Assembly: GCA_964609145.1 (NCBI GenBank)
Contig: CAZSRI010000001.1
Span: forward strand, 21,651 to 82,346
Reading direction: 5' to 3'
DNA: 60,696 nucleotides
Source of the DNA: an uncultured Chloroflexota bacterium
Lineage (GTDB): Bacteria; Chloroflexota; Limnocylindria; P2-11E
This document shows, piece after piece, positions 2,855-34,800 of the stretch (position 1 is its first letter; every line of letters starts with the position of its first letter). A model generated the notes under the pieces. The model saw nothing but the letters and a program-made list of their open reading frames with translations, was not told the DNA's origin and ran no database searches. Position numbers and translations under genes: made by a program.

Positions 2855-4068
2855 CCGCGGCGGTCCGCGCGGAGCGCGTCAGCAAGACGTACATCCTGCG
2901 CCGCGAGCGGCGCCGCACGCTGAAGGAGGTCGTGCTGCGCCAGTACGCGCCGGCGGACCGCGTCGACGCGCTGCGCGACGTGAGCTTCGAGGTCACGAAG
3001 GGCGAGGCGTTCGGCGTCGTCGGCTCGAACGGGTCGGGGAAGTCCACCCTGCTCAAGCTCATCGCCGGCACGAGCTGTCCGACGAGCGGGCGGCTCGACG
3101 TCGACGGCCGCGTCTCCGCGCTCCTCGAGCTCGGCGCGGGGTTCCACCCCGACTTCACGGGACGCGAGAACGCGCTCTTGAACGGCTCCCTGCTCGGCAT
3201 CCCGAAGGCGCGCATGGAGAGCGTGTTGCCGTCGGTCGAGGCGTTCGCCGACATCGGCCGCTTCTTCGACGCGCCGGTGAAGACGTACTCGAGCGGGATG
3301 TACGCGCGGCTCGGGTTCGCGGTCGCCGTGCACCTCGATCCCGACGTGCTCCTCGTCGACGAGGTGCTCGCCGTCGGCGACGAGTACTTCCAGCACAAAT
3401 GCTTCGCGAAGATCGCGGAGTTCCGCCGCGCAGGCCGCACGATCGTCCTCGTCTCGCACGACCTCGGCGCGGTGAGCCGGCTGTGCGAGCGCGCGCTGTG
3501 GCTCGACGCCGGCGCCGTCGCCGCGCTCGGCCCGACGCGCGAGACCTTGAACGCGTACCAGCGCACCGTCGGCGAGCGCGAGCAGCGCGAGCGCGCCGCG
3601 CGCGGCGAGGTCGGGCAGCGGTGGGGCTCGAAGGAGATCGAGATCGTCCGCGCGCGGGTCCTCGCGTCGGACGGGACGGAGCGCGCGGTCCTCGATTCGG
3701 GCGAGCACGCGACGATCGAGATCGCCTACCGCAACGCGGCGGGCGTGACCGACGCGGTGTTCGGCATCTACGTCTACCGCGACGACGGCGTGGGGGTGTA
3801 CGGCACGAACACGCTCATGGACGGGGTCGAGGTCCCCGTCCGTGCGGACGGCGTCGCGGCGATCCGTTTCGACGAGCTCGACCTGCTCCCCGGGGCCTAC
3901 GACATCGACGTCGGGATCATCGACCCGCAGGACCGCTACTACGACTACCTGCAGAAGGGCTTGTCCGTGCGCGTGATCGGGCGCTCGCGCGAGGTGGGGA
4001 TCGCTCGCCTCCGGCATCGCTGGGAGTTCGATGCAGGGGGGGACACCCCCCCTGCGACCCCCCCATAG
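2851..4068 (+). CDS. Polysaccharide/teichoic-acid export ABC transporter ATP-binding protein (Wzt/TagH-like) with an extra C-terminal domain
   Basis: Walker A is GSNGSGKST, the signature is YSSGMYARL and Walker B is VLLVDEVLAVGD. About 150 further residues follow the NBD, as in Wzt-type glycan-binding C-domains. The last 11 codons (GGDTPPATPP) are encoded by repeat element E1. Confidence 0.8.
   Translation: MTAAVRAERVSKTYILRRERRRTLKEVVLRQYAPADRVDALRDVSFEVTKGEAFGVVGSNGSGKSTLLKLIAGTSCPTSGRLDVDGRVSALLELGAGFHPDFTGRENALLNGSLLGIPKARMESVLPSVEAFADIGRFFDAPVKTYSSGMYARLGFAVAVHLDPDVLLVDEVLAVGDEYFQHKCFAKIAEFRRAGRTIVLVSHDLGAVSRLCERALWLDAGAVAALGPTRETLNAYQRTVGEREQRERAARGEVGQRWGSKEIEIVRARVLASDGTERAVLDSGEHATIEIAYRNAAGVTDAVFGIYVYRDDGVGVYGTNTLMDGVEVPVRADGVAAIRFDELDLLPGAYDIDVGIIDPQDRYYDYLQKGLSVRVIGRSREVGIARLRHRWEFDAGGDTPPATPP
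4033..4064 (+). repeat. G/C-run hairpin element E1
   Basis: Sequence GCAGGGGGGG-ACA-CCCCCCCTGC (perfect 10-bp stem) followed by GA-CCCCCCC. It ends 1 nt before the Wzt stop TAG (4066-4068) and 13 nt before the metF ATG. Confidence 0.85.
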
Positions 4069-4077
4069 CATCGTCAG

Positions 4078-4968
4078 ATGCGCATCGCGGACGCGTACCG
4101 CGGGGGTAAACCGGCGTTCTCGTTCGAGTTCTTCCCGCCACGGAACGCTGAGGGGCTGCGACGCCTCCACGACACGATCGCGGCGCTGAAGCCGCTCCGT
4201 CCGGACTTCGTGTCGGTCACGTACGGCGCCGGCGGGAGCACGCGCGAGCTCACGATCGAGCTCGTCACGCAGATCAGGCGCGACACCGGGATCGAGGCGA
4301 TGGCCCACCTCACGTGCGTCGGCCACACCGCCGCCGAGCTCGCGGCGATCCTCGACCGGCTCGACGCCGCCGGCGTCGAGAACGTGATCGCGCTGCGCGG
4401 CGATCCCCCGAAGGGACAGCGCACCTTCATTGCGACCCAGGGCGGGTTCGCGCACGGGATGGAGCTCGCGGCGTTCGTGCGATCGCGCTGGCCGTTCTGC
4501 GTCGCCGGCGCGACGTACCCCGAGGGCCACGTCGAGTCGCCGGACCCGATGGACGACGTCCGCTACGCGAAAGCGAAGCAGGACGCGGGCGTCGACGTCC
4601 TCATCACGCAGCTCTTCTTCGAGCCCGAGGCGTACTTCCGCTTCCTTCGACGAGCGCGCGCGGCCGGGGTCACCGTGCCGATCGTCCCCGGCGTCATGCC
4701 GATCACGGCGGCGTCGCAGCTCTCGCCGACCGGCATGTTCGCGCGCTGCGGCGCGACCGTGCCCGGCGCGCTGCGCCGCCGCATCGAGGCCGCGCGCGAC
4801 GACGACGCCGTGCTCGCGATCGGGACCGCGTGGGCGCTGGGGGAGTGCCGCACGCTCCTCGAGGGCGGCGCGCCGGGCATCCACTTCTACACGCTGAACC
4901 GCTCGCGCTCGGCGTACGCCGTGTACCGCGGGCTGACCGCATCGGTCCCGGCGGTGGAGGCGCGCTAG
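4078..4968 (+). CDS. metF: 5,10-methylenetetrahydrofolate reductase
   Basis: The N-terminus KPAFSFEFFPPR...FVSVTYGAGGSTR and the 296-aa length are typical of MetF. Confidence 0.9.
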   Translation: MRIADAYRGGKPAFSFEFFPPRNAEGLRRLHDTIAALKPLRPDFVSVTYGAGGSTRELTIELVTQIRRDTGIEAMAHLTCVGHTAAELAAILDRLDAAGVENVIALRGDPPKGQRTFIATQGGFAHGMELAAFVRSRWPFCVAGATYPEGHVESPDPMDDVRYAKAKQDAGVDVLITQLFFEPEAYFRFLRRARAAGVTVPIVPGVMPITAASQLSPTGMFARCGATVPGALRRRIEAARDDDAVLAIGTAWALGECRTLLEGGAPGIHFYTLNRSRSAYAVYRGLTASVPAVEAR

Positions 4969-5044
4969 CGCAACGGCCCGACGCTCTGTGCCGTCGAGGA
5001 AGGCGTGATCGCCCGAGAGCAGCCGACGTCCAGCTCTCGCGGCT

Positions 5045-5977
5045 CTAGCGCCTCTTCTCCTCGAGCTCCTCGAGCGTCTTCGGCCAGTCCTCGCGCAGCA
5101 GCCGCGAGAGCGCGCGGTCCGCGAGGAGCTTGCCGCCCGTCTGGCACGTCGCGCAGTAGTTGGCCTCGTTCTCCGCGTAGCGGATCCGCTGGACCGGGCT
5201 GCCGCATACGGGGCAGGGCTGGCGGTACTTCCCGTGCACCGCCATCTCGGGCCGGAACGCCGTCACCTTCTCCGGGAACCGCTGGCGCGCCTCCGCCACG
5301 AGGCGCTCGGTCCACTCGAACAGCACGTCGCGCGTCGCGATCCACAGCAGCTCGACCTCGTCGCCCGTGAGCGCGCGCGTGAGCCTCGTCGGCGGGAGCT
5401 TCGCGCGGTGGAGGATCTCGTCGCTGTACGCGTTGCCGATCCCGCTGAAGATCGTCGGGTCGGTGAGCGCGCGCTTCAGCGTGTGGCTCTCGCGCCCGAG
5501 CGCCTCGCGGAACGTCGCGAGGTCCGCGTCGAGCGGCTCGATCCCGCCGCGCGCGAACCGCCCGAGCTCCGTGTCGTGCACGAGGTGGAGCGACGCGCGC
5601 TTCGTCGCGTTCGCCTCCGTGAGCAGGAGCGTCGCGTGGTCGAGGTCGAGCGCGGCATGGCCGACGCGAGCCGGGATCCGAGCGGCCTTCTCGCGCCAGT
5701 GGAACCGGCCGGCGATCATGAGGTGGACGACGAGCGCGAGGCCGCCAGAGGCGGGGGTGGAGGGGGGCGGAGCCCCCTGCGATGGACGGAGCTCGAGGAC
5801 GATGCGCTTCCCGAGGCGGTGAACGCCCGTCACGCGGTATCCCTCGGCCGCCGAGATCGGGGGGTCGAACGTGCGGAGGACGATGGGGCTCGCGATCCGC
5901 ACGCGCTCGAGCACGTGCCCGACGACGTTCCGCCGCAGCGCTTCGAGGTACGCCTCGACGTCGGGCAGCTCAGGCAT
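5045..5977 (-). CDS. Fpg/Nei-family DNA glycosylase / AP lyase
   Basis: The internal start gives MPELPDVE (catalytic Pro2/Glu3). The C-terminus carries the zinc finger CPVCGSPV...YCATCQ. The upstream part of ORF 5045..6433 is Arg/Ser-rich junk. The gene carries a ~12-aa loop insertion encoded by element E2. Confidence 0.85.
   Translation of the reverse strand: MPELPDVEAYLEALRRNVVGHVLERVRIASPIVLRTFDPPISAAEGYRVTGVHRLGKRIVLELRPSQGAPPPSTPASGGLALVVHLMIAGRFHWREKAARIPARVGHAALDLDHATLLLTEANATKRASLHLVHDTELGRFARGGIEPLDADLATFREALGRESHTLKRALTDPTIFSGIGNAYSDEILHRAKLPPTRLTRALTGDEVELLWIATRDVLFEWTERLVAEARQRFPEKVTAFRPEMAVHGKYRQPCPVCGSPVQRIRYAENEANYCATCQTGGKLLADRALSRLLREDWPKTLEELEEKRR
5751..5782 (-). repeat. 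G/C-run hairpin element E2, in-frame inside the fpg-like gene
   Basis: The reverse complement TCGCAGGGGGCTCCGCCCCCCTCCACCCCCGC matches 34391-34419 at 28 of 29 nt. It is translated as SQGAPPPSTPA. Confidence 0.85.
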
Positions 5978-5987
5978 CTGACACACA

Positions 5988-7085
5988 ATGTCACCCACCG
6001 TGGTGGACGACGTCCTCGAAGAGGTGCGAGAGCGCATCCGCGCCAAGCGCGAGTCGGGCGTGTACGGGCCCGAGGTCGAGGCGGCGCTGCGGCTCCCGCT
6101 CCCCGGCGGCCGGCCGCTCTTCAGCGCGGAGCTCGGCGACCCGTTCCCGGCGCTGCGCGACGCGATCGACGAGCGCGTCGAGTACGACCCGCGCAGCCGC
6201 AAGCCGTTCGTCGGGCCGGTCGTCACGGCCGCGCGGCGCGTCGTCATGGGGCTCGCGCGCTGGTGGCTCGCGGCGATGGGGGAGCGCCAGGAGCGCATCG
6301 ACCGCCTCGCGTTCCGCGCCCTGCTCGACCTGCGCGAGCGCCCGAACCCGGGCTTCGACGAGCGCCTCCGCCGCCTCGAGACGGAGTGGGCACGCTTCCG
6401 CCGCGACCTCGTGGCGGCGGACCTGCACAGCACCTACTTCCAGGCGCGCTTCGGCGGCGACGAGCCCGTCATCCGCGAGCAGTCGGAGCGCTTCCTCGAC
6501 CTGTACCGCGGCCGCCACCGCGTCCTCGACCTCGGGAGCGGCCGCGGGATCTTCCTCGACCTCGTGCGCGAGCAGGGGATCGGCGCGTACGGCGTCGACC
6601 TCGACCCGCGGACTATCGGGATCGCGCGCGGCAAGGGCCTCGAGGTCGTCGAGGCCGACGCGCTCGCGCACCTGCGGGCGCTCGCGCCGAGCGCGATCGA
6701 CGGCGTGTACGCGCGCCACCTCGCCGAGCACGTCCTCCCCGGCGAGCTCGTCGCGATCCTGCGCGAGAGCCGCCGCGTCCTCGCGCCCGGGTCGCCCGTC
6801 GTCTTCGTGACGCCGAACCCCTCGACGCTCACCGTCGGCGCGCACACGTTCTGGCTCGACCCGGGGCACATCCGGCCGATCCCCGCGGAGCTCTTCCGCT
6901 TCCTCCTCGAGGTCGAGGGCTACGAGGACGTGCGGGTCGTGACGTTCGAGCCGACGCAGGGCGCCAAGCTCGCCGAGTCGGGCGACGACGCCGCGCGCGC
7001 GAACGCGCGCATGCTGAACGAGCTGCTCTTCGGCGACCGCGACTACGCGGTCATCGGGCACGCGCCGTTCGTGGCCAAGGCGTGA
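5988..7085 (+). CDS. SAM-dependent methyltransferase with a long helical N-terminal extension
   Basis: The C-terminal half has RVLDLGSGRGIF...DGVYARHLAEHV...LAPGSPVVFVTPN. About 170 N-terminal residues are Arg/Glu/Leu-rich. It diverges from fpg with only a 10-bp gap. Confidence 0.75.
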   Translation: MSPTVVDDVLEEVRERIRAKRESGVYGPEVEAALRLPLPGGRPLFSAELGDPFPALRDAIDERVEYDPRSRKPFVGPVVTAARRVVMGLARWWLAAMGERQERIDRLAFRALLDLRERPNPGFDERLRRLETEWARFRRDLVAADLHSTYFQARFGGDEPVIREQSERFLDLYRGRHRVLDLGSGRGIFLDLVREQGIGAYGVDLDPRTIGIARGKGLEVVEADALAHLRALAPSAIDGVYARHLAEHVLPGELVAILRESRRVLAPGSPVVFVTPNPSTLTVGAHTFWLDPGHIRPIPAELFRFLLEVEGYEDVRVVTFEPTQGAKLAESGDDAARANARMLNELLFGDRDYAVIGHAPFVAKA

Positions 7086-7088
7086 ACC

Positions 7089-7121
7089 GGGGGGTGGAAG
7101 GGGGGCAGCGCCCGCCTGCGA
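7089..7121 (-). repeat. G/C-run hairpin element E3 (diverged), intergenic
   Basis: The reverse complement TCGCAGGCGGGCGCTGCCCCCCTTCCACCCCCC shares both ends with E2 and E8. It lies between the methyltransferase stop (7085) and the GT start. Confidence 0.7.
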
Positions 7122-7159
7122 TACCCAAGGCCTGGCGCTTCGCGGGTCCGCCAGGCGCC

Positions 7160-8209: not shown

Positions 8210-10434
8210 AGCTCGAGCGCGCGTACCAGTTCGTCGCGACCGCGGCGTACGGCGACGCGATCGGCGGCGACGTCTTCGAGCTGCAGCGGCTCTTCTGGAA
8301 GCGCGGCGTCGCGAGCGAGGTCTTCGCGCAGGAGGCGCGCACGCCGATCGCGCCGTTCGTCCGCCCCTGGCACGACCTGCACGCGGAGCCGGTGGACGCA
8401 TCCGCGCTCCTCGTCCACGTCTCGATGGGGAACGACGCCCTCTCCGAGGTCGCGCGGCTGCCGCACCGCAAGGCCGTCGTCTACCACAACATCACGCCGG
8501 CTCGGTTCTTCGAGGGGATCAGCGAGCAGCTCCTCGCGCACAGCCGCCTCGGGCGCGAGCAGCTGCGCGAGCTCGCGACGTCCGCGGAGCTGGGGATCGC
8601 CGACAGCGAGTTCAACCGCCAGGAGCTCGAGGCCGTCGGCTACGCGCGCACCGCCGTCGTCCCGATCCTCGTCGACCCGCGCGCGTTCGACGTCGAGCCG
8701 GATCCCGCGACGGTCGCCGAGCTCGCCGACGAGCGCACCGACGTCCTCGTCGCGGGCCAGATCCTCCCGCAGAAGGCGATCCTCGACGTGCTCGACGGAT
8801 TCGCGCGATACCGCGAGAGCGACCCGACCGCGCGCCTGCACCTCGTCGGCACGACCGCGATGTCGGGACCGTACCTCGACCGCGTACGCGAGCGGACCAG
8901 CCGGCTCGGGATCGGCGGCGCCGTGCGCCTCACCGGCGCCGTCTCGATCGAGCGGTACGTCGCGTACTTCCGCGGCTCGACGCTGCTCCTCACGCTCTCC
9001 GACCACGAGGGCTTCTGCGTGCCGCTCCTCGAGGCGATGCGCGCGGGGCTGCCCATCGTCGCGCACGCGGCGGGCGCCACGCCCGAGACGCTCGGCGACG
9101 CGGGGATCCTCCTCGAGCGGAAGTCGCCAGACCTCGTCGCCGCGGCGCTCGAGCGCGCGGTGCGCGACCAGGACCTCCGCCGCGATCTCGTCGAGAAAGG
9201 GCGCCGCCGGCTCGAGGACTTCGCGGCCCCGCGCGTGGCCGAGCGGCTCGGGCGGGCGCTCGCGACGGTAGGGTGGGAGCTGCCGCCCGAGCGGACGCGC
9301 CGCGTGACCGTGCTCTCGAGCGACCAGCGCTGCGGGATCCACCACTACGCGCTCGCCGTCTGCGACGGGCTGCGCGCGAACGGCCACGAGGTGACGTTCG
9401 TCGGCGTCCGCCACCTCGACACCGGCGACCTCTACCGGAAGGTCGGCGGGATCGCGAAGGGTGAGACCGTGCTCGTCGAGCACGAGGCCGGGATCTTCCG
9501 CGACGTGCCGTTCGTGCGCGTCCTGCTCGACCTGAAGCGCCGGGGACACCGGATCGTGCTCTCGCTCCACGAGCTCGAGCCCGAGAAGTTCCATCACTAC
9601 CGGAGGCTGTCCGCGGCGCTCCATTACCGGCCGCGCTTCCGGTGGTGGATCGAGGCGGGCCGCGCGTTCTGGGTCGCGGCACGGATCGCCAACTGGTTCG
9701 TGCGCTACAGGGCCGTGCTCGGCCTCATGGGGTCGCTGCCCGACCGGCTCGTCGTGCACTCGTCGCGCTCCGGCTACTGGCTCGACCTCCTCACGCACGA
9801 CGCGGGCAAGCGCGACGAGTTCCCGCTCGCGCTCATGCCGATCGAAGAAGAGCGTGGGGGGGCTCTGCCCCCCCACGTGCCCCCCCGTCATGCCGCGGCA
9901 AAGCGCGAGCTCCGGAGGAGCCTCGGGCTGCCGGAGGACGCGTTCATCTTCATTTCGCCGGGGTTCTTCTTCCCGCGCAAGCGATACCTCGAGGTGATCG
10001 GCGCGCTGCCGGACGACGCCGTGCTCGTGCTCTCGGGCACGCGCTCCGACCGCGAGCCCGAGTACTTCGACCGCGTGCTCGAGGCCGCCAAGGCGAAGCC
10101 GAACGTGGTCGTGAACACCGACTACGACTCGATGGGGCGGTACGTCGCCGCGTCCGACGCCGTCGTGCTCTTCTACGACGACGTCTTTCAGAGCGCGATC
10201 GTCACTCAGGCCGTGTGGGCGGGCTTGCCGTGCATCTTCTCCAGCACGCCGGGCCTCCGGCTCTTCCACGGCGCCGGGCTCGTCGCGCGCGACACCGACG
10301 AGCTGCGCCGGCACATGGAGGCGATCCGCGAGCCCGACACGTACGAGCGCCTGCGCCGCGGCGTGAGCGTGCTGCGGCGGATGCTCGCGCCGGAGCGGGT
10401 CGTGGCTCGGTACCTCGTCGGCGTCGGCGGGTAG
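8206..10434 (+). CDS. Two-domain glycosyltransferase (N-terminal GT4 module paralogous to 7160..8209, plus a second GT-B-like module)
   Basis: 742 aa. The first module carries SDHEGFCVPLLEAM. The second module starts around RRVTVLSSDQRCGIHHY. The ATG overlaps the upstream stop (ATGA at 8206-8209). Confidence 0.75.
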   Translation: MKLERAYQFVATAAYGDAIGGDVFELQRLFWKRGVASEVFAQEARTPIAPFVRPWHDLHAEPVDASALLVHVSMGNDALSEVARLPHRKAVVYHNITPARFFEGISEQLLAHSRLGREQLRELATSAELGIADSEFNRQELEAVGYARTAVVPILVDPRAFDVEPDPATVAELADERTDVLVAGQILPQKAILDVLDGFARYRESDPTARLHLVGTTAMSGPYLDRVRERTSRLGIGGAVRLTGAVSIERYVAYFRGSTLLLTLSDHEGFCVPLLEAMRAGLPIVAHAAGATPETLGDAGILLERKSPDLVAAALERAVRDQDLRRDLVEKGRRRLEDFAAPRVAERLGRALATVGWELPPERTRRVTVLSSDQRCGIHHYALAVCDGLRANGHEVTFVGVRHLDTGDLYRKVGGIAKGETVLVEHEAGIFRDVPFVRVLLDLKRRGHRIVLSLHELEPEKFHHYRRLSAALHYRPRFRWWIEAGRAFWVAARIANWFVRYRAVLGLMGSLPDRLVVHSSRSGYWLDLLTHDAGKRDEFPLALMPIEEERGGALPPHVPPRHAAAKRELRRSLGLPEDAFIFISPGFFFPRKRYLEVIGALPDDAVLVLSGTRSDREPEYFDRVLEAAKAKPNVVVNTDYDSMGRYVAASDAVVLFYDDVFQSAIVTQAVWAGLPCIFSSTPGLRLFHGAGLVARDTDELRRHMEAIREPDTYERLRRGVSVLRRMLAPERVVARYLVGVGG
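9853..9885 (+). repeat. G/C-run hairpin element E4, in-frame inside the two-domain GT
   Basis: Sequence CGTGGGGGGG-CTCTG-CCCCCCACG-TG-CCCCCCC, translated RGGALPPHVPP. Confidence 0.8.
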
Positions 10435-10505
10435 GGGCTCCGACGAGGAGAAGGGAGAGGTCTCCACGGCGTTCTTCGCCCTGCTGGCACCTCGGGCGGC
10501 GCGAG

Positions 10506-10941: not shown

Positions 10942-10959
10942 CCCCCGCAGCGCCACGCC

Positions 10960-12129: not shown

Positions 12130-13342
12130 TCATCGCGGGGGCGTGACCCCCGCACCCCCCGCCACGCGGTCTTCGCTGTTGGTGGTCGTGCAGCGGTACG
12201 GCGACGTCGCCGGCGGCGCGGAGGCGCACGCGCGCCAGCTCGTCGGGCATCTGAAGCCGCACCTCGACGTCGAGGTCGCGACGACGACCGCGCGCGACTA
12301 CTGGACGTGGGAGAACGCGTTCACCGCGGGCCTCACCTGGGTCGACGGCGTGCCCGTGCGCCGGTTCCCCGTGGCGAAGCCGCGCGCGCGGCTGTTCCGG
12401 ACGTACGAGCGGCGCGCGTTCGCGGGCGACCACTCGCTCCGCGACGAGGAGGCGTTCCTCGACGCGCAGGGTCCCGTGACGCCGGGCCTCCTCGAGTTCC
12501 TCTTCCGTCACGGCCGCGAGTTCGACCACGTCCTCTTCTTCACGTACATCTACTGGACGACCGTCTTCGGCCTGCCCGTCGTGCCGGACCGCGCCGTCCT
12601 CGTCCCGACCGCGCACGAGGAGCCGGCGATCGCGCTCACCTCTTATCGCCGTGTGTTCCACCTGCCGCGTGCGATCGCGTTCAACACCCAGGAGGAGCGC
12701 GCGTTCGTCCACCGCCGCTTCGCGAACACGCGGGTGCCGAACGACGTCGTCGGCGTCGGCGTCGACGTCCCGACGGACGTCTCGGCCGACCGCTTCCGGC
12801 AGGCGCACGGCCTCGAGGGTCCGCTGTTCCTCTACGTCGGTCGCATCGTCGAAAGCAAGGGCGTGCGCGACCTGCTCGACCTGTGGGAGCGCTGGCAGGG
12901 ATCCACGCGGACGCGTGCGACGCTCGTCCTCGCCGGGCATCGCGAGATGCCGATCCCCGACCGCGCCGACGTGCGGTACGTCGGTCACATCGACGACCGC
13001 TCGAAGTGGGACGCGTACGCGGCGTGCACCGCGCTGATCATGCCGAGCCTGCTCGAGTCGCTCTCGATGGTGACGCTCGAGGCGTGGGCGACGGCGAAGC
13101 CGGCGCTCGTGGCGGCGCGCTCCCCCGTCCTCGCGTCGATGGCGCGCCGCGCCGACGCGGGCGTCCCGTATCGCTCGTTCGCCGAGTTCGCCGAGGTCTG
13201 CGAGCTGCTCGTCGCGCGGCCCGAGGTCGGTCGGCGCCTCGGCGAATGCGGGCGCGGCTTCGTCGCGCGGACGTACACATGGCCGGTCGTCGTGGAGAAG
13301 TACCTCGACCTCTTCGCGGAGTCGAAGGCGCGCCGGACATGA
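12122..13342 (+). CDS. Glycosyltransferase, tandem paralog of 10960..12129
   Basis: LLVVVQRYGDVAGGAEAHA...DVEVATTTARDYWTWE parallels the upstream protein. Contains PSLLESLSMVTLEAW. The start overlaps the upstream stop (ATG 12122, TGA 12127-12129). Confidence 0.75.
   Translation: MPDHRGGVTPAPPATRSSLLVVVQRYGDVAGGAEAHARQLVGHLKPHLDVEVATTTARDYWTWENAFTAGLTWVDGVPVRRFPVAKPRARLFRTYERRAFAGDHSLRDEEAFLDAQGPVTPGLLEFLFRHGREFDHVLFFTYIYWTTVFGLPVVPDRAVLVPTAHEEPAIALTSYRRVFHLPRAIAFNTQEERAFVHRRFANTRVPNDVVGVGVDVPTDVSADRFRQAHGLEGPLFLYVGRIVESKGVRDLLDLWERWQGSTRTRATLVLAGHREMPIPDRADVRYVGHIDDRSKWDAYAACTALIMPSLLESLSMVTLEAWATAKPALVAARSPVLASMARRADAGVPYRSFAEFAEVCELLVARPEVGRRLGECGRGFVARTYTWPVVVEKYLDLFAESKARRT
12135..12160 (+). 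repeat. G/C-run hairpin element E5 at a cistron junction
   Basis: Sequence GCGGGGG-CGTGA-CCCCCGC-A-CCCCCC lying 5 nt after the upstream stop, translated RGGVTPAPP at the N-terminus of the GT. Confidence 0.8.
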
Positions 13343-13344
13343 AG

Positions 13345-13370
13345 AAGGGGCGCCCTCGCGGGCGCCCCTT
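13345..13370. terminator. Bidirectional hairpin between convergent genes
   Basis: AAGGGGCGCCC-TCGC-GGGCGCCCCTT is a perfect 11-bp stem with a 4-nt loop. It starts 3 nt after the GT stop (13342) and lies 20 nt before the stop of the minus-strand lipoprotein gene. Confidence 0.7.
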
Positions 13371-13390
13371 CGGATCGACGCGTGTGAGCG

Positions 13391-20714: not shown

Positions 20715-21877
20715 CGATGACCAAAGTGAAGACGCAGATCCCGCTCGTGGACCTGCGCGCGAACTACGCGCAGATCAAGGACGAGGTCCGCGCGGCGATC
20801 GACGAGATCCTCGAGGGTATGCAGCTCAACCTCGGCCCGAACGTGCGTGCCTTCGACCAGGAGTGGGCCACGTTCTGCGGCGTGAAGCACGCCGTCGGCG
20901 TGGGCTCCGGGACCGACGCGCTCCAGCTCGCGATCCGCGCGCTCGGCATCGCTCCGGGCGACGAGGTCATCACGGTCTCGCACTCGTTCTTCGCGACGGC
21001 CGAGGCGATCTTCTACTCGGGCGCGCGGCCGATCTTCGTCGACATCGAAGAGCGCACCTTCTGCATCGACGTCGCGCAGGTCGCCGACCGCATCACGCCC
21101 CGCACCAAGGCCATCGTGCCTGTGCACCTCTACGGGCGCACCGCGGACATGAAGCGCCTCCTCGACATCGCGAAGGACGCGCACGTCGCGGTCATCGAGG
21201 ACGCGGCCCAGGCGCACGGCGCGATGCTCGACACCGGCGGCAAGGCGGGCACCGCGGGGACGATGGGGTGCTTCTCCTTCTACTGCAGCAAGAACCTCGG
21301 GGCGTACGGCGAGGCCGGCAGCATCGTGACGAACGACGACGAGCTCGCCGGCGAGCTCCGACAGCTCCGCGAGCACGGCCAGGTGACGCGCTACTACCAC
21401 CCCATCGTCGGCTACAACGCGCGGCTCGACGAGATCCAGGCGGCGGTGCTGCGCATCAAGCTGAAGCACCTCGAGCGCTGGAACGAGCGGCGACGCGCCA
21501 TCGCGCGTCTCTACAACAGGCTTCTCGAGGGCTCCGGCGTCATCACGCCGGAAGACGTGGGCGAGCGGCACGTGTGGCACATCTATGCGATCCGCGTCGA
21601 GGGCGGGAAGCGCGACGCGATGAAGGACTTCCTGGCCGAGCGCGGCGTCGGGACGGGGATCCACTACCCGGTGCCGATCCACATGCAGGAGTCGGCGCAG
21701 TTCCTCGGGTACCGCGCCGGCGAGCTCCCCGTGACGGAGCGCGTGTCGGGCGAGGTCCTCTCGCTCCCGATGTATCCCGAGCTCACCGACGACCAGGCCG
21801 CGTACGTCGCCGACGCCGTGAAAGCGTTCATGACGGGCCGAGGGGGCTTCGCCCCCCCGAGGACCCCCCCATCTTGA
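20711..21877 (+). CDS. DegT/DnrJ/EryC1/StrS-family PLP aminotransferase (WbpE-like)
   Basis: Contains IPLVDLRANYAQIKDEV...GSGTDALQLA...FSFYCSKNLGAYGEAG (PLP lysine context). ATGA overlap at 20711-20714. The C-terminal RGGFAPPRTPPS is encoded by element E6. Confidence 0.85.
   Translation: MTMTKVKTQIPLVDLRANYAQIKDEVRAAIDEILEGMQLNLGPNVRAFDQEWATFCGVKHAVGVGSGTDALQLAIRALGIAPGDEVITVSHSFFATAEAIFYSGARPIFVDIEERTFCIDVAQVADRITPRTKAIVPVHLYGRTADMKRLLDIAKDAHVAVIEDAAQAHGAMLDTGGKAGTAGTMGCFSFYCSKNLGAYGEAGSIVTNDDELAGELRQLREHGQVTRYYHPIVGYNARLDEIQAAVLRIKLKHLERWNERRRAIARLYNRLLEGSGVITPEDVGERHVWHIYAIRVEGGKRDAMKDFLAERGVGTGIHYPVPIHMQESAQFLGYRAGELPVTERVSGEVLSLPMYPELTDDQAAYVADAVKAFMTGRGGFAPPRTPPS
21842..21870 (+). repeat. 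G/C-run hairpin element E6 at a cistron junction
   Basis: Sequence GGGGGC-TTC-GCCCCC-CCGAGGA-CCCCCCC ending 3 nt before the TTG/TGA overlap at 21874-21877. Confidence 0.75.
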
Positions 21878-24673: not shown

Positions 24674-24696
24674 TCGCAGGGGGCTCCGCCCCTACC
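24674..24696 (+). repeat. Truncated G/C-run element E7 at the operon end
   Basis: TCGCAGGGGGCTCCGCCCCTACC shares its first 19 nt with E8. Its hairpin AGGGGC-TCC-GCCCCT lies between convergent stops (24664 and 24692). Confidence 0.7.
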
Positions 24697-25366
24697 GCAT
24701 GAGGATCGACGAGGCCGCGTCGAGGTCGTCGCCGCCCGCGTCCACGAGCGAGACGACGACCTGGTACACGAGGTCGCGGTCGTAGAAGTCACGCCATGAC
24801 GAGGTGCCCTCGCCGGTCACCGTGAAGAGGGCGTCGCCCGCCTTCACCTGCCGCCCGTCCTGCGCCACGAGCGCGGTGTCGGCGCCGAGCGCACCGGGGC
24901 GGAACGTGAGCTTGCGGCCGTCGGCCGCGAAGACGATCACGTACGGGTACACCGGCGTGCCCGCCACCGACGTGCCCTCGCGGATCGACCCGCCGAGGAG
25001 CTGGTAGCGGTGCAGCTCGACGCGTCCATCGAACGGCGCGACGACGGTCGCGCCCTTCGGGATGACGGCGACGGTGTACCTGTGGTCGCCGTACTCGTAG
25101 GGGTGCGTGACGGGCGCGCGCGGCGCCGGGGTCGGCGTCGCGGTCGGCGCCGGCGTCGGCGCAGGCGTCGGAGCAGGCGTGGGTGTCGGCCGCGGGGTCG
25201 GCGTCGGGGACGCGACGGCGACCGAAGGGCTCGGCACGGGCGCGACCGTCGCGGCGGCGATCTGCGGCGCGGGCGCCGTCGCCGTCGCGACGATCCCGAA
25301 CAGCCCCGCGACGAGGACGACGCCGACGACCGCGCCCTGGACCGCGATCTCGAAGCGCTCGCTCAC
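24692..25366 (-). CDS. Single-pass membrane protein with a Pro/Thr linker and a C-terminal beta-rich domain (function unknown)
   Basis: The TM span is AVVGVVLVAGLFGIVATA, followed by PTPTPRPTPTPAPTPAPTPAPTATPTPAP and then about 130 aa (VVAPFDGRV..GDALFTV, faintly lipoyl/M23-barrel-like). The start overlaps the upstream GT2 stop. Confidence 0.55.
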   Translation of the reverse strand: MSERFEIAVQGAVVGVVLVAGLFGIVATATAPAPQIAAATVAPVPSPSVAVASPTPTPRPTPTPAPTPAPTPAPTATPTPAPRAPVTHPYEYGDHRYTVAVIPKGATVVAPFDGRVELHRYQLLGGSIREGTSVAGTPVYPYVIVFAADGRKLTFRPGALGADTALVAQDGRQVKAGDALFTVTGEGTSSWRDFYDRDLVYQVVVSLVDAGGDDLDAASSILMR

Positions 25367-26115
25367 GCCCGTCCGAACGCTCGGTCGCGCGCGACCTTGC
25401 CCATCTGGATGAGGTAGCTCACGATCTCGCCGCCGCCGAACTTGCTCTTCCCGGCCTCACGGTCGTGGAACGTGTACGGCACCTCGACGACACGGGTGTA
25501 GCGCCCGCGCGCCATCACCTCGAAGCCGATCTTGAAGCCGATCGGGTCGAGCCGCACGCCGTCGATGACCGAGCGGCGGAGCGCGAAGAAGCCGCTCGTC
25601 GCGTCGCGGACGGGCACGAGCACGTTCCCCATGAGACACGCGACGCGCGAGACGATGCGCCGGCGGAGCGGCCAATCGACCGTGCCCCCGCCGAGCACGT
25701 AGCGGCTGCCGACGGCGAGGTCGGCGCCGCCCTCGACGGCGTCGACGAGCGCGGGCACGACCTCGGGCGGGTGGGAGAGGTCCGCGTCCATGACGACGAG
25801 GACGTCAGCGCGGGCCTCGTGCATCCCCGCCATCACGGCGGTCGCGAGGCCGAGCTTGCCGCTCCGCCGCACGACGCGGACGGGGGTCCGAGGCGCGAGG
25901 CGTCCGGCGACGTCGGCGGTGCCGTCCGGCGAGCCGTCGTCGACCACGATGAGCTCCCAGGGCCGCTCGCCGAGGGCCGCGACGAGCCGCGCCGCGAGCG
26001 TGGGGATCGTCGCCGCCTCGTTGTACGTGGGAACGACGACGGAGATGCCTGCTCTTGGCGGGGGCGCGCTAACGCGCACAGGGGCCCCTGCCCCCGCCCC
26101 CGCACGCCCCGTCAT
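25363..26115 (-). CDS. GT2-family polyprenol-phosphate glycosyltransferase (Ppm1/DPM-synthase-like)
   Basis: Contains ISVVVPTYNEAATI...LIVVDDGSPDGT...VLVVMDADLSHPP (DxD and DAD motifs). The ATG at 26115 gives 250 aa. The rest of ORF 25363..26988 is out-of-gene. Confidence 0.85.
   Translation of the reverse strand: MTGRAGAGAGAPVRVSAPPPRAGISVVVPTYNEAATIPTLAARLVAALGERPWELIVVDDGSPDGTADVAGRLAPRTPVRVVRRSGKLGLATAVMAGMHEARADVLVVMDADLSHPPEVVPALVDAVEGGADLAVGSRYVLGGGTVDWPLRRRIVSRVACLMGNVLVPVRDATSGFFALRRSVIDGVRLDPIGFKIGFEVMARGRYTRVVEVPYTFHDREAGKSKFGGGEIVSYLIQMGKVARDRAFGRA
26058..26110. repeat. Expanded-loop G/C-run element E9, which also forms a minus-strand G-quadruplex motif
   Basis: GCGGGGG (26058-64) pairs with CCCCCGC (26091-97), enclosing the palindromes GCGCG-CTAA-CGCGC and CAGGGGCCCCTG. 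C-tracts lie at 26085-88, 26091-95, 26097-101 and 26107-10. On the GT2 coding strand these read G4-CGTGC-G5-C-G5-CA-G4, starting 3 nt after the ATG. Confidence 0.7.
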
Positions 26116-26128: not shown

Positions 26129-26136
26129 CGTTCGCG

Positions 26137-27273: not shown

Positions 27274-27282
27274 CCTTAGGTC

Positions 27283-28632: not shown

Positions 28633-28645
28633 TCCGTTCGCGGCG

Positions 28646-29155: not shown

Positions 29156-29243
29156 CGATCGGAACGGGTGCGAGCGAGGATCCGGCTCTGCCGGTCCGAG
29201 CGAGTCCGAGGGCGGAGCCCACATCGGGCCGAAGGCACGATGG

Positions 29244-29957: not shown

Positions 29958-30073
29958 ATGCCGAGCACGTTCCTCATCTCATTCCGACCCTCGGTCGGGC
30001 AAAGCCCTCCCTCAGGCCCAGGTGCTCGACCTCGTCTTCGCCTCGGTCCGCGCGCCTGGGGGACCATTGTGCC

Positions 30074-30670
30074 GTGCGCACCTTCTTGATCGGATCGATG
30101 AACCAGGGGAAGATCGCGGAGTACCGGCGCATGCTCGCGGGGCTCGACCTCCGTCTCGTCGACCCCTCGCACCTCGACCCCGTGCCGCCCGAGCCCGCCG
30201 AGGACCACGACACGTACGCGGCGAACGCGGCGGCGAAGGCCGAGGCGTACGCGGCGGCGACGGGCCTGGCGACGATCGCCGACGACTCCGGCGTCGAGGT
30301 GGACGCCCTCGGCGGCGCTCCCGGCGTGCGGAGCCGCCGGTACTTCGGCGAGCGCGCCGGGCCCGCGGAGCGCAACGCGAAGCTCCTCGCGCTCATGGAA
30401 GAGGCGCCGCAGCGCGACGCGCGCTTCGTGTGCGTCGTCGCGCTCGCGTATCCGGGCGGACCGACAGAGCTGTTCGAGGGGATCTGCCGCGGCTCGGTCG
30501 CGAAGGCGCCCCGCAGCGACGGCCATGGCTTCGGCTACGACCCGATCTTCATCGTCGGCGGCGACGGGCGCACGATGGCCGAGCTCTCGCCCGAGGAGAA
30601 GGACCTGGTCTCGCACCGCGGCCTCGCCGTCGCGAAGCTACGCGCGCATCTCGGCGCCGAGCCGCGCTAG
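30074..30670 (+). CDS. rdgB: Non-canonical purine NTP pyrophosphatase (RdgB/HAM1 family)
   Basis: Contains SMNQGKIAEY...IADDSGVEVDALGGAPGVRSRRY...GFGYDPIF...MAELSPEEKDLVSHRG. It follows rph as in many genomes. The GTG start is tentative. Confidence 0.85.
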   Translation: MRTFLIGSMNQGKIAEYRRMLAGLDLRLVDPSHLDPVPPEPAEDHDTYAANAAAKAEAYAAATGLATIADDSGVEVDALGGAPGVRSRRYFGERAGPAERNAKLLALMEEAPQRDARFVCVVALAYPGGPTELFEGICRGSVAKAPRSDGHGFGYDPIFIVGGDGRTMAELSPEEKDLVSHRGLAVAKLRAHLGAEPR

Positions 30671-30759
30671 CGGGACGATCGTTCCGGGCGGCTCGCGAAG
30701 AGCGACGGCGCATCGCTGTCGACGAAGGCGCGCGATCTCCTTCGAGGGGCGCTCGAGAC

Positions 30760-31320
30760 CTACGAGACGCGAGGTGCGGATCCTCGCGGCGGTCCGCCGG
30801 AAGGACGGGTACCGTCGTACACGATCCGCCCGCCCTCCACGCGGGCGACGTCCCAGAGCCGGTGGGGCCCGGTCTTCTCCGGGCCGAGCAGGTGCACGAC
30901 CTCCCAGCCGTCGACGGTGAGCCGATCCGAGAGGAGCCGCCGATGGCAGCGCCACCAGAGCGTCTCCGAGCACATGTACGCGGTCGGCGCCTCGCGGGCG
31001 AGCGCGAGCAGCCTCGCGTACTCGGCGCGGAACTCGTCGCCGGCCATGTGGTCGGCGTACGCGCGGAACGCGGCGACGCGCAGCGCGCGATGCGGCGAGG
31101 CGTGGCTTTCGCGCCGCCGCCCGCCGAGGCCGGGCAGGTGCACGTAGCGGATCCCCGCCGCCTCGAGCGAGGTCGCGAGCGCGTCCTTCCCGAACTGCGG
31201 ATGCCGCCGCGAGCCCGGGAAGCTGCGGACATCCGCCACGGTGGCGATCCGGTGCTCGCGCAGCAGCGCGATCGACTCGTCGATGGTGCGCGTGCCGTGT
31301 CCGACCGACCAGATCCGCAT
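30760..31320 (-). CDS. DUF488 family protein
   Basis: MRIWSVGHGTRTIDE...VADVRSFPGSRRHPQF...LWWRCHRRLL is the DUF488 pattern. It is the only credible part of the 1489-aa antisense ORF 30760..35229. Confidence 0.75.
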   Translation of the reverse strand: MRIWSVGHGTRTIDESIALLREHRIATVADVRSFPGSRRHPQFGKDALATSLEAAGIRYVHLPGLGGRRRESHASPHRALRVAAFRAYADHMAGDEFRAEYARLLALAREAPTAYMCSETLWWRCHRRLLSDRLTVDGWEVVHLLGPEKTGPHRLWDVARVEGGRIVYDGTRPSGGPPRGSAPRVS

Positions 31321-31329
31321 GCGACCAGT

Positions 31330-31800
31330 GTGCGAGACTTCGCGCCCGTGAGCGCCGCGGTCATCGCGCTGCACCTGCACACGGAGAACGGCGTCCGTCC
31401 CGCGGCGGTCGACGCGGTCACCGGGCGCGTCGGCGGCGGCATCGAGGGCGACAGCCATGTTGGCAAGGGCGAGCGGGCGGTGCTCGTCGTCGACCGCTCC
31501 ACGCTGGACTCGCTCTCGCTCGCGCCGGGCGACCTGCGCGAGCAGATCACCGTCGAGGGCCTCGGCGACGTGACGAACATGCTCGCCGGCGCGGTCCTGC
31601 GCGCCGGCGGCATCACGCTGCGCGTGAACAGGCCATGCGCGCCGTGCACGCACATCGGCGAGATGCTCGGCCGGCCCGACCCCGAGGCGTTCCGCGTCTC
31701 GCTCCTCGGACGGCGCGGTGCGGTCTGCACCGTCGTCGCCGTCGACGGCGCGCTCCGCGTCGGCGATCGTGTCGAGGTGGTGGCGCCCGCGGCCGTCTGA
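31330..31800 (+). CDS. MOSC domain protein
   Basis: Contains GIEGDSH...GDLREQITVEG..L..GAVLRAGGITLRVNRPCAPC. The GTG start at 31330 or 31349 is uncertain. Confidence 0.65.
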   Translation: MRDFAPVSAAVIALHLHTENGVRPAAVDAVTGRVGGGIEGDSHVGKGERAVLVVDRSTLDSLSLAPGDLREQITVEGLGDVTNMLAGAVLRAGGITLRVNRPCAPCTHIGEMLGRPDPEAFRVSLLGRRGAVCTVVAVDGALRVGDRVEVVAPAAV

Positions 31801-31881
31801 CGCGCGCGCTTTTTCGCTCGGCACCGTTCCGCAACGCTTCTCCCACTTCCTGGGCCGTTGACGATCCCCTAGCGTGCGCGG

Positions 31882-34800
31882 ATGGTCGACGAGCACGACG
31901 CCTGCGCCCTCGTGGCCGTCGCGCGCAAGGACGCGCGCCCGACGCGCGACGTCCTCGACCTCGCCCTCCACGGTCTGCGATGCCTCCATCACCGCTCGGG
32001 CACGGTCGACGGCGAAGGCGACGGCGCGGGCGTCCTGACGGACATCCCGCGCGACGTGTGGGCCGACCGCGTCGGCGAGCGCGCGTTCGACCCGCGCTTC
32101 GCCGTCGCGCACCTCTTCGTCCCTCCCGCGGCCTCCGACGCCGAGCGGCCGTCGGTGCGCCGGATCCTCCAGCGCCACGGGGTACGCGTCCTCGCCGAGC
32201 GCGAGGACGGCCTCGACACGGCCGTCCTCGGCCCGCATGGCCGCGACGCGGCGCCCCGCTTCTGGCAGCTCGCGCTCCACGTCACCGGGTCGCAGAGCTC
32301 CGGCGCGCGCCGCTTGCACGACGCCTGGTACGACATCGAGCGCACGACGAGCGCGACGGTGGTGAGCCTCTCGCGCCGTAGCGCGGTGTACAAGCTCCGC
32401 GGCGACGCGGCGCAGCTCGCGCGCGCGTACGCCGACCTCGCCGATCCGCGCTTCGCGACCTCCATGGCGTTCGGGCACAACCGCTACGCGACGAACACGA
32501 CGACGAGCTTCGAGCGCGTTCAGCCGTTCCCCGCGATCGCACACAACGGCGAGATCAACACGGTCGAGCGCCTGCGCACCGAGGCGCGCATGCTGCGGCT
32601 CCCGCTGTCGCGCGACGGGAGCGACTCGCAGGACGTCGACGCCGTCGTGCGCGGGCTCGTCAACAGGTACGGGCTCTCCCTCATCGAGGCGATCGAGCTC
32701 CTGTTCCCGCCGATCGTGAACGAGGTGAAGCGCATGGACGCCCCGACGCAGGATCTCTACGTCCACGCGCGCGCCGCGCTCGGGCCGTTCGCGCAGGGGC
32801 CCGCCGCGATCCTCTCGCGCGTCGGCGACACGTGCGTGTTCACCGTCGACGCGCTCGGGCTGCGCCCGCTGTGGCACGTCGAGACGCCCGACGAGCACGT
32901 CTTCGCGAGCGAGCGCGGGTTCGTCCCGCTGGGGCGGTACGCGCGCGACCCGCGGCCGCTCGGGCCCGGCGAGCGCGCGGCGCTCCGCCGGACGCCGGAG
33001 GGGTGGCGGTACCTCGATCACGCGGACGTCCGCGCGCGGTTCGTCGCCGCGCGCGCCGCGCACGGCACGCCCGTCGACGGCGTGCGCGCGCGCATGGAGG
33101 CGGGCGGCCCGGCGGAGGCGCCCGCGCCGGCGGCGCCGCGGCGGGCGCGCGGCATGGGGCGGTGGGAGATCGGCCTCCCGCCCGACGAGGTCGAGGACCT
33201 CACGCAGCGCCGCGAGGCGCTCTTCGCCGCGTTCGGCTGGGAGCCCGACGACGTGCGCATGGCGAAGGCGATGTCCGACACCGGGAGCGAGCCGATCGGC
33301 TCGCTCGGCTACGACGGCCCGCTCGGCGCCCTCACCGCACGGACGATGCTCGCGGACCACATCCACGAGACCGTGGCCGTCGTCACGAATCCCGCGATCG
33401 ACCGCGAGCGCGAGATCGAGCACTTCTCGACGCGCGCCATCGTCGGCCCGCGGCCCGCGGTCCGCGGCCGCGGACCGGTGCGGCCGTGGGTCGAGCTGCG
33501 GACGCCCATCCTCCTCGGCGGCCACGCGCCGGAGACGGGCGTGCGGAGCGCCGACCACCGCGCCACGGCGCGCGCCCTCGGGACGTGGATCCTCGAGGAC
33601 CTCGTGGCCGAGATCGGCGCGCGGTACGCGCGCGGCACGGTCGTGCTCGAGGCCGACCGCGACTGGGAGGAGCACCCGCGCGACGCGCTCGCGCGCATCG
33701 CCGCGGCCGCCTGCCGCGGGGTCCGCCGCGGCTCGCACCTCGTGATCGTCCAGGACCGCCACGTCTTCGAGGAGGGGCGCGCGTGGCTCGACCCGCTCCT
33801 GGCCACGGCGGCGGTGCATCGCGCCCTCGTCGAGGCGCCGGCAGGGTCGGGGTCGCTGCGCCGCGAGTGCGGGATCGTCGTCTCCGCGGGGAGCCTGCGG
33901 AACCTCCACGACGTCGTCCTCGCGCTCGGCCTCGGCGCCGACGCGGTCAACCCCTACCTCCTGCTCGAGCACGCGATCGCGCAGGAGGATCCCGACGCGC
34001 TGCCCGGGCTCGTCGAGGCGCTGCGCAAGGGCATCGAGAAGGTCATCTCGACGCTCGGCATCCACGAGCTGCGCGGCTATGGGCGCCTCTTCTCCGCGAT
34101 CGGCGTCGCGCCCGACGTCGCGCGGCTCCTGGGGGTCCGCGCGTTCTGCGCCGACGAGGGGGTGGGCCTCACGTGGGAGCGCATCGGCGCCGACGGCCTC
34201 GACCGCGCCGCGATGCTGCGCCAGCGGACGCCCGCGCGGCTCGAGCCGCCCTTCCGTATCTACCCGCGCGTGTGGAAGGCGGCGCTCGCGATGGCGAACG
34301 GCGAGACGGCGTACGCCGCGTACGCCGAGAAGCTCGGCGAGCTCGAGCGCGAGCACCCCGTGTCGCTGCGGCACCTCTGGGACCTGCTCGTCGCAGGGGG
34401 CTCCGCCCCCTTCCACCCCCAGGACGTGGACACGAGCGCCGGCGAGCACGCGATGCCCTTCTACATCTCGTCGATGTCGTTCGGCTCGCAGGGCGAGACG
34501 GCGTACCGCGCCTACGCCGAGGCGGCGTTCCGCATGAACACGATCTGCATGAACGGCGAGGGCGGCGAGCTGCCCGACCTCCTCGGCAGGTACCCGAAGA
34601 ACCGCGGGCAGCAGATCGCGTCGGGACGCTTCGGCGTGTCGGCGCTCCTCGCGAACTCGAGCCAGTGGCTCGAGATCAAGATCGGCCAGGGCGCGAAGCC
34701 CGGCGAGGGTGGGCACCTGCCGGCGAAGAAGGTCTCGGAGAAGGTCGCGCTCGCGCGCAACGCGCGCGCGGGCATCGACCTCATCTCGCCGTCGAACAAC

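Follow-up and report, generated by a model that had tools for sequence, protein, structure and literature searches.

A probably mobile hairpin repeat with three matched homopolymer runs at gene junctions of Limnocylindria

What are the short G-run/C-run hairpins that recur at cistron junctions, and in frame inside genes, along a stretch of DNA from an uncultured bacterium of Limnocylindria, a class of Chloroflexota? The stretch analyzed here (60,696 bp, 72% G+C; hereafter the window) was mapped into genes from third-position G+C plus Pfam, and an initial annotation had quoted nine copies of such a hairpin, each of which is present where it had been placed. Our answer, to which we give a probability of roughly 60%, is that the copies belong to a lineage-specific, non-autonomous dispersed repeat of Limnocylindria, of the kind represented by repetitive extragenic palindromes (REPs) and miniature inverted-repeat transposable elements (MITEs).

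The search pattern proposed with the nine copies, G{5,7}N{3,5}C{5,7}N{1,7}C{5,7}, matched six times across both strands of the window and not once in 300 dinucleotide-preserving shuffles. Runs of five or more G or C are depleted overall (80 observed against 116±10 expected) while the pattern recurs, which indicates that the runs are concentrated in the hairpin elements, and the 30-mer TCGCAGGGGGCTCCGCCCCCYTCCACCCCC has two exact occurrences where 0 are expected. A single architecture had been claimed for all nine copies. The layout is indeed common to them, but two related types have to be told apart instead of one. Four copies, named here by their first positions (34391, 5751, the diverged 7089 and the truncated 24674), are A-type, with a near-invariant 30-nt core of TCGCA-G5-loop-C5-TTCCA-C5, and all four are retrieved by a profile built from 138 copies outside the window (E = 1e-11 to 7.5e-4). 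Four others (4033, 9853, 12135 and 21842) are B-type, with the layout N3-G5-7-loop-C5-7-N3'-2 nt-C6-7, and have the architecture but not the sequence in common with the A-type. The expanded-loop form at 26058 is set apart from both groups of four. Instead of the ~30 nt first suggested, information content gives a conserved A-type unit of ~41 nt, in which the core is extended by 7 pyrimidine-rich nucleotides on the 5' side and by ~4 nt on the 3' side. The loop is its main site of variation (CTCCG in 68, CTTCG in 20, CTCTG in 13 and CTGCG in 9 of 145 unique copies), and the core contains zero stop codons across six frames.

The distribution of the A-type is narrow. A scan of one genome per species, covering 185,579 species with the pattern TCGCAGGGGGN{3,10}CCCCYTCCACCCCC, returned 44 stretches, all in nine metagenome-assembled genomes (MAGs) of Chloroflexota/Limnocylindria, with 24 in GCA_016183435.1 and 13 in SMAG_U2748. 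Metagenomes held more than 120 stretches, at the least, among the matches listed. An identical core stands between unrelated flanks in 61 of the 145 unique copies. Homologues of the window's Fpg protein that carry source names come mostly from Chloroflexota or Candidatus Limnocylindria MAGs, and a few more distant ones are named Myxococcales, Deltaproteobacteria or Thermoanaerobaculia. Viral contigs scanned with the A-type pattern gave zero matches, on which a phage origin was rejected, and Rfam 15 gave zero element matches at the gathering threshold or at E<=1, on which a known structured RNA family was set aside. The copies are dispersed single units and thus no CRISPR or tandem array. The element sequence was not found in the literature searched.

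Larger forms are built around the same core in relatives. A composite form of ~66 nt places a covarying 6-bp hairpin, GSCGGC-RNR-GCCGSC, and a 7-nt pyrimidine tract 5' of the A-type core; it occurs at L022, L023, L024, L030, L032, L035 and 18 further loci, with none in the window, and lies in frame in three open reading frames (ORFs), where it reads AAKPPSL-SQGAPPPSTP. The added hairpin and tract had been considered as a separate terminator family ('Hairpin 1'), but 24 of their 25 occurrences are fused directly to an A-type core, and they are therefore part of the composite form. A long form has a 62-nt core with an inner hairpin. Multi-copy loci are arranged head-to-tail (L040, L064, L070, L061 and L021) or nested (the long form and L027).

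Evidence that these are inserted sequences comes from orthologous sites in three syntenic loci from relatives, L002, L003 and L004. As the initial annotation had supposed, the ~30 nt behaves as an insertion relative to orthologues, and the fpg loop, the glycosyltransferase (GT) site and the junction sites are all found empty in relatives. One GT/GT junction reads 'CT ATGA AG', a stop/start overlap, in the window and in L003, and 'CT GTGA C-GGGGGGTGGAAGGGGGGCGCAGCCCCCCTGCGAAGAG-TGATG CTG' in L002 and L004, where a 37-nt element is present. At the junction of the methyltransferase with the following GT gene the situation is reversed: L003 has a GTGA overlap, and only the window is filled, by the 7089 copy. 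The 12135 site is empty in L003, occupied by the long form in L002 and L004 and by a short hairpin in the window, and this short hairpin is orthologous to the inner hairpin that the long form carries nested in an A-type element. In a 741-aa GT the window alone has an extra 24 nt (RGGALPPH), where three orthologues read ...EEV--------TPP.... The fpg copy is a 13-residue loop insertion relative to crystal-structure homologues; the insert is missing from 20 of 25 aligned close orthologues, is common to L002 and L004, and in L003 has decayed to TCATCTAGCGGCGGCGCCTCATCTAAG with loss of the hairpin. In a metagenomic locus (L133), an Fpg homologue carries another A-type insertion, independent of the first and again in frame, ...MIAGRFHWRAFS-SQGGHPPSTPQ-ERPRVPARVGHA, ~25 residues downstream of the site used in the window. 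The tail of the Wzt protein is element-encoded in the window (DAGGDTPPATPP), and its L002 orthologue ends ...RHRWEFGSLIR. Judged from these alignments, copies have been gained and lost at orthologous sites between related genomes. Run lengths at 4033 and 5751 are identical in an independent assembly (L001).

A further filled site is the fusA-tuf spacer. In L031, L051 and L060 this spacer consists of TGA-aaccga-element-(1-3 nt)-ATG, with EF-G and EF-Tu confirmed by Pfam, and in five relatives (EF-Tu 88-91% identical) it is empty, 15-24 nt long and provided with an ordinary G-rich Shine-Dalgarno (SD) sequence. The three filled loci have identical flanks and hence go back to a single insertion within a single population, so conservation of this copy across lineages was dismissed. 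The site nevertheless shows that tuf can have the element as its whole translation-initiation region. In related Chloroflexota (L169-L187) there are two tuf copies, one after fusA and the other with a tRNA-like sequence in front of it and rpmG-secE-nusG-rplK behind it; EF-Tu proteins are identical in both contexts, and assemblies may therefore be chimeric across the duplicate.

Where copies lie relative to genes was determined for the 127 copies with scorable flanks by a codon log-odds model, for which 130,405 codons served as the training set. Sixty are intercistronic between co-directional genes, 37 with the G-rich strand as sense (G-sense) and 23 with the C-rich strand as sense (C-sense); 11 lie between convergent genes, zero between divergent genes, and 12 within continuous ORFs, the remainder having at least one non-coding flank. 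An earlier impression from 46 copies, that the C-strand is nearly always sense inside ORFs, did not survive in this larger set (7 C-sense against 5 G-sense). Positions relative to codons are tight. Among G-sense copies, 23 of 30 have the upstream stop 1-6 nt ahead of the first G-run, and 18 of 32 have the next start at -1 to +7 nt, six of these 18 close starts being an ATG formed with the terminal A of the element (TGCG-ATG). Among the 23 C-sense copies, 11 form the C-terminal tail of the upstream ORF, as at 4033 and 21842, and the other 12 begin 0-33 nt past the stop, 10 of them within 11 nt. The element thus shows a strong preference for stop/start junctions and is missing from divergent, that is promoter, regions.

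The in-ORF copies allow a protein-level explanation to be judged, namely that a Gly-Gly...Pro-Pro linker is selected in several enzymes. The translations are rich in Gly and Pro, and six of the seven C-sense in-ORF A-type copies do use the frame SQGAPPPSTP. Yet the same core that reads SQGAPPPSTP in fpg reads VAGGSAPFHPQ in gltB, and the five G-strand copies use three frames, with peptides such as GGGRG.., GVEGG.. and GWKGAEPPA. A core read in differing frames is not a protein motif; most copies, moreover, are intergenic, and orthologues do without the peptide. On the frame differences and the intergenic majority the linker explanation was ruled out, and we give it hardly any credence. The proposal that nucleic acid and not peptide is conserved is borne out.

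The stems fold as the initial annotation had described. They consist of 6-12 G:C base pairs with loops of 3-5 nt, and the A-type forms a stem of 7 bp closed by a triloop (about -8 kcal/mol, z about -1.3). Two B-type copies have longer stems, 4033 with a 10-bp stem (-13.4 kcal/mol, z -4.3) and 9853 with a 12-bp stem (-15.8 kcal/mol, z -5.0), and the nested hairpin of 26058 reaches -21 kcal/mol (z -2.2). Two others are no stabler than shuffled sequence: 21842, with a 6-bp stem only and a minimum free energy of -7.3 kcal/mol (z +0.1), and 7089, at -4.9 kcal/mol (z +1.0). The suggested covariation of the bases that flank the stem was upheld. In 17 B-type copies, 41 of 51 positions in the flanking triplets pair, against 24.4 after permutation (0 of 10,000 permutations reach the observed value), and five distinct complementary triplets are represented, GGC/GCC, CGC/GCG, TGA/TCA, GCA/TGC and CGT/ACG. 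Pairing of the G-run with the third run (the second C-run) instead is unsupported by the flanking bases, save at 12135, whose minimum-energy fold uses the third run. An intramolecular C+.G-C triplex was also considered; it fits the geometry of the A-type but is not supported by that of the B-type, in which three of the five linker bases are paired in the stem extension. Runs of protonated C are unfavourable at neutral pH.

Since B-type copies are alike in architecture and little alike in sequence, they might be no spreading family at all, but local mutational products at homopolymer G/C tracts, in which template switching or foldback synthesis turns the C-run into a perfect inverted repeat; their common architecture would then reflect a common mutational mechanism in a genome of 72% G+C. 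Their stems are perfect palindromes of 9-12 bp, and at 9853 the third C-run coincides with Thr-Pro-Pro codons (ACGCCGCC) that were already there, leaving ~24 nt as new. We consider this origin quite improbable. B-type subfamilies carry the same tags at unrelated loci (GGC..GCC-GA five times, as well as TGA..TCA-GA and CGC..GCG-AT), the two C-runs stand 5 nt apart in 15 of 17 copies, the 12135 hairpin has its ortholog inside an A-type-nested long form, and runs of five or more G are otherwise depleted in the window.

The third run sets the family further apart. In 141 A-type copies the run lengths are (5,5,5) in 109 and (6,6,6) in 14, and the table of G-run against third C-run length (117/7/2/15) gives a Fisher p of 3e-13. 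The B-type sets include (7,7,7) and (6,6,6). A (6,6,6) sub-lineage by shared ancestry is possible; the 17 copies with a G6 run carry 14 different loops. That three slippage-prone runs are kept equal while loops diverge suggests constraint. To our knowledge, a length-matched third run has no counterpart in REP-type families.

How would a mobile repeat of this kind spread and survive? The unit consists of G5-7, a 3-5-nt loop and C5-7, followed 5 nt downstream by a second C-run of equal length; in the A-type, TCGCA stands 5' of the stem, TTCCA separates the C-runs, and the 7-nt pyrimidine-rich extension is added at the 5' end. It may move as a single-stranded hairpin recognised by an enzyme encoded elsewhere, which could be an HUH/Y1-type or another nuclease; alternatively, it may spread by template switching. 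B-type copies would be structural relatives or derivatives that have kept the hairpin and the third run while their sequence drifted. Within ORFs, a stop-free core and loop peptides rich in Gly, Ser, Pro and Ala would render insertions harmless. At junctions, a G-strand copy would rebuild what it interrupts: a stop 1-6 nt upstream, GGGGGUGG as an extended SD-like sequence, the hairpin as a spacer and a terminal A that completes ATG and restores ATGA. The anti-SD sequence at the 3' end of 16S rRNA is conserved, and GGGGGUGG could pair with its 3'-CCUCCACU-5' at eight contiguous positions (six Watson-Crick and two G-U). Folding of the hairpin would shorten the ~24-nt distance from GGGGGUGG to AUG to ~6 nt, and a ribosome terminating 1-6 nt upstream could open the hairpin, in keeping with the established RNA-unfolding model of translational coupling (PMC12548453). 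The stop-free core, flexible peptides and junction rebuilding would together explain why insertions at ATGA/GTGA overlaps, in C-terminal tails and in surface loops are tolerated.

The same features could mean that the element is in the first place a functional RNA module that acts in cis within operons and is under selection at cistron junctions. Its G-strand would then be a stop/SD/hairpin/start cassette through which translation of the next gene is coupled or tuned, the hairpin bringing GGGGGUGG to ~6 nt from AUG, and in either orientation the hairpin could act as a 3' stabiliser or terminator, with in-ORF copies as by-products. The placement of stops and starts around most G-sense copies, the zero count between divergent genes, the eight-position pairing potential with the anti-SD, the coupling model just cited and the maintained run lengths, which suggest constraint, would all fit, as would the fusA-tuf copy, which replaces the normal SD-bearing spacer so that tuf is there without another SD. 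Against this stand junction copies in both orientations (37 against 23), the C-sense transcripts being devoid of the cassette features; sites that are polymorphic between close relatives, with empty alleles that work with ordinary overlaps or SD sequences; in-ORF copies that decay freely; and the zero matches in Rfam. The three fusA-tuf copies, too, come from one population, and these organisms have a second tuf copy. We regard a primarily regulatory origin as somewhat unlikely, and note that the mobile-repeat and regulatory readings are not mutually exclusive.

There is also a bolder proposal, which we think unlikely: a portable cassette whose three equal runs act jointly, or a geometry read by a single-strand DNA enzyme that inserts beside stops. 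On the G-strand, the first G-run (GGGGGUGG) would be the SD, and the second G-run with the C-run would fold into a hairpin that, as a spacer, fixes the distance from SD to AUG; pairing with the first run instead would switch the ribosome-binding site off. For the enzyme, the recognition signal would be the geometry of the three runs, in which a purine run, a loop and a pyrimidine run are followed by a 5-nt loop and another pyrimidine run. If this were true, the element would be self-spreading DNA able to restore a stop, a ribosome-binding site and a start at each place of insertion.

Among known systems, REPs are closest to the window family in size, structure, copy number and position. Both are G+C-rich hairpins of 20-40 nt in tens to hundreds of dispersed copies, located for the most part at the 3' ends of genes and in the gaps of co-directional or convergent gene pairs, with a conserved short tag by the stem and a CCA-containing unpaired tail, and in both some copies supply stop codons and some lie wholly within ORFs in frame. 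REPs are known to supply stop codons, to lie in ORFs and to carry CCA-containing tails, and those of the CGTC group have no dedicated transposase (PMC3733652). The window family, with its unit of 30-41 nt, falls within the REP palindrome size of ~21-65 nt for a G+C-rich stem-loop, and its copies are dispersed and mostly extragenic, 71 of 127 lying between co-directional or convergent genes. It differs in the second C-run, length-matched to the stem runs and 5 nt after the hairpin, and in its host, an uncultured Chloroflexota class.

Several points weigh against classing the family as a mobile repeat of the REP or MITE kind. The copies carry no GTAG/CGTC tag; instead the A-type has TCGCA 5' of the stem and TTCCA after it, and the B-type has variable covarying triplets. 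Among the copies seen there are no inverted doublets of the REPIN or BIME kind, the multi-copy loci being head-to-tail or nested. A RAYT/IS200 transposase near the copies was sought with a regular expression for the HUH motif of Y1 transposases in six-frame translations, in 0.4 Mb and then in 1.13 Mb around copies, a small and biased sample, and gave no credible ORF, so that a RAYT-like gene did not come to light in this DNA. Membership of REP/RAYT in the strict sense is not shown, since tag, inverted doublets and Y1 motif are all missing from this material and the copies occur in both orientations; of the REP- or RPE-like character proposed by the initial annotation (RPE, Rickettsia palindromic element), the dispersed hairpins at junctions and in frame stand. 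Target-site duplication is not general (13 copies with a match of at least 4 nt against 9.9±2.7 by permutation) and was given up as a hallmark, TCA/TGA on both sides being confined to a subset. At gltB the insertion is not clean: the copy takes the place of part of a variable linker, and the protein is longer by only ~2 residues net. The copy lists were collected with a near-exact pattern, so that the apparent sequence conservation is partly a product of retrieval. Finally, the closeness to stop codons and the third-run match suggest sequence-specific targeting or a function beyond 'tolerated junk'.

Other repeat classes agree with the family in part. Mycobacterial interspersed repetitive units (MIRUs) are G+C-rich intercistronic operon repeats of 40-100 bp that contain ORFs and whose ends overlap the stop and start codons of their neighbors (PMC3184786). 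The window family is likewise intercistronic with ends at or over stops and starts (23 of 30 and 18 of 32 G-sense copies), but MIRUs are larger and form tandem variable-number arrays, whereas the copies here are mostly single hairpins, occur also in ORFs and face both ways (37 G-sense against 23 C-sense). MIRUs are oriented with transcription. RPEs are palindromic repeats of ~105-146 bp that lie in frame in protein-coding genes and add surface-loop peptides (PMC3184786). The in-frame palindromic insertions of the window resemble them in adding loop peptides (13 aa in fpg and 8 aa in the GT), but the unit measures 30-41 nt (66 nt in the composite), and with 12 of 127 copies in ORFs it is junctions that predominate. 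MITEs that depend on a DDE transposase differ in having terminal inverted repeats and a target-site duplication of fixed length, the inverted repeat here being internal and without a general target-site duplication; GTGA stands on both sides at one site. The hairpin-centered ends and the missing target-site duplication recall IS200/IS605 elements, as a resemblance only; a subset of copies lies 3' of TCA and ends in ..GnTCA, giving head-to-tail tandems (L040, L041, L042 and L011), but this TCA/TCA arrangement occurs in ~10 of 47 copies only, copies favour one orientation only weakly (37:23), and the search of the 1.13 Mb yielded no TnpA. The claim that the type is undescribed needs qualification: stop-codon-overlapping and in-ORF REPs (PMC3733652), in-frame repeat insertions and neighbor-overlapping MIRUs (PMC3184786) are already documented, and what is left without a known counterpart is the length-matched third run.

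In the window itself, six copies lie at junctions or gene ends and three in frame, in fpg, the GT and gltB, as first reported and with some refinement. The copy at 4033-4064 (+; GCA-G7-ACA-C7-TGC-GA-C7) forms the last 11 codons of Wzt, which ends with TAG at 4066-4068 before the metF start at 4078. Similarly, 21842-21870 (+; G5-CTTCG-C7-GAGGA-C7) makes up the C-terminal tail of DegT (RGGFAPPRTPPS), after which the stop overlaps the start of the acyltransferase gene in a TTGA; the two copies supply the last 11-12 codons of their proteins, with the stop 1-4 nt past the third run. The diverged A-type copy at 7089-7121 (-; E 7.5e-4) lies between the methyltransferase stop (TGA, 7083-7085) and the next GT gene with its G-rich strand as sense, and a GTG within it is probably the start of that GT gene. 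At 12135-12160 (+; GC-G5-CGTGA-C5-GC-A-C6) the hairpin begins 5 nt past the TGA of the upstream GT and is probably intergenic, because comparison with L003 places the conserved downstream start at a GTG at 12182. The A-type copy at 24674-24696 (+; E 4e-5), truncated after the second C-run, lies between convergent genes, 9 nt past the TGA of the second DegT gene, and overlaps the stop of the minus-strand gene at 24692-25366. The expanded-loop copy at 26058-26110 (+) presents its G-rich strand as sense to the GT2 gene at 25363-26115 (-) and encodes the predicted first 24 aa of that gene, ahead of the GT2 domain.

Of the in-frame copies, the A-type element at 34391-34420 (+; exact consensus core, E 1e-11) lies in a variable linker of gltB, and the B-type element at 9853-9886 (+; CGT-G7-CTCTG-C7-ACG-TG-C7) adds a net 24 nt, or 8 aa, to the 741-aa GT. 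The third, an A-type copy at 5751-5782 (-; TCGCAGGGGGCTCCGCCCCCCTCCACCCCC), adds 13 aa, RPSQGAPPPSTPA, in a beta-hairpin loop of Fpg. The fpg gene (5045-5977) lies on the strand opposite to the methyltransferase and GT genes in the window and on the same strand as these in L002 (10001-10960), L003 and L004; L002 has four extra small genes between metF and fpg, and the locus is a local inversion or rearrangement adjoining repeat copies. G7/C7 tracts derived from elements, at 4036-4064, 9856-9886 and 21852-21870, lie in coding parts of Wzt, the GT and DegT, and are potential sites of slipped-strand frameshifting within this polysaccharide-synthesis cluster.

No family member occurs at 37-60.7 kb, as had been noted, and a G5C5...C5 structure in that block, at 41336-41372, is a different thing. 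The sequence at 41336-41375, GGGGGCCCCC-ATACCCA-CCCCCTCC-CGG-GGAGGGGGT-ATG, contains a 9-bp hairpin in which an anti-SD-like CCCCCUCC pairs with the SD sequence GGAGGGGG, directly before a gene of CsoR type (PF02583, 101 aa), and it looks like a translational control hairpin. The genes at 41373-44189 comprise this CsoR-type metal-sensing repressor, a putative HMA/CopZ-like ORF and a putative P-type ATPase-sized ORF. A tRNA gene (37000-37073; Rfam RF00005, 67.7 bits) marks the border between the repeat-rich block at 4-35 kb and the repeat-free one at 37-60.7 kb. A perfect 12-bp G+C hairpin at 13344-13371, GAAGGGGCGCCC-TCGC-GGGCGCCCCTTC, lies 1 nt past the stop of a GT gene ending at 13342; it is terminator-like without a T-run and unrelated in sequence to the repeat family. 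Two adjacent 7-bp hairpins at 152-200 in the first ORF have the same arms swapped (TGATGCC-ACTT-GGCATCA ... GGCATCA-CGT-TGATGCC).

Small palindromic repeats such as REPs, REPINs, RPEs and MIRUs are known mainly from Proteobacteria, Rickettsia and mycobacteria, and the family described here would add a well-defined one from a class of uncultured Chloroflexota that live in soil and groundwater. It is unusual in having a third homopolymer run equal in length to both stem runs and in its tight placement at stop and start codons, which in one case replaces the whole fusA-tuf spacer, SD included. For annotation, the consequence is that gene callers will lengthen or shorten ORFs, as in the C-terminal tails of Wzt and DegT, the N-terminal extensions of GTs and the 8-13-aa loop inserts of Fpg and the GT, while the G7/C7 tracts in glycan-synthesis genes are potential slippage sites. 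In metagenomes, the A-type core is a handy sequence by which to recognise the Limnocylindria lineage. If the element truly gives ribosome-binding function, it would be a mobile DNA with its own junction-repair kit.

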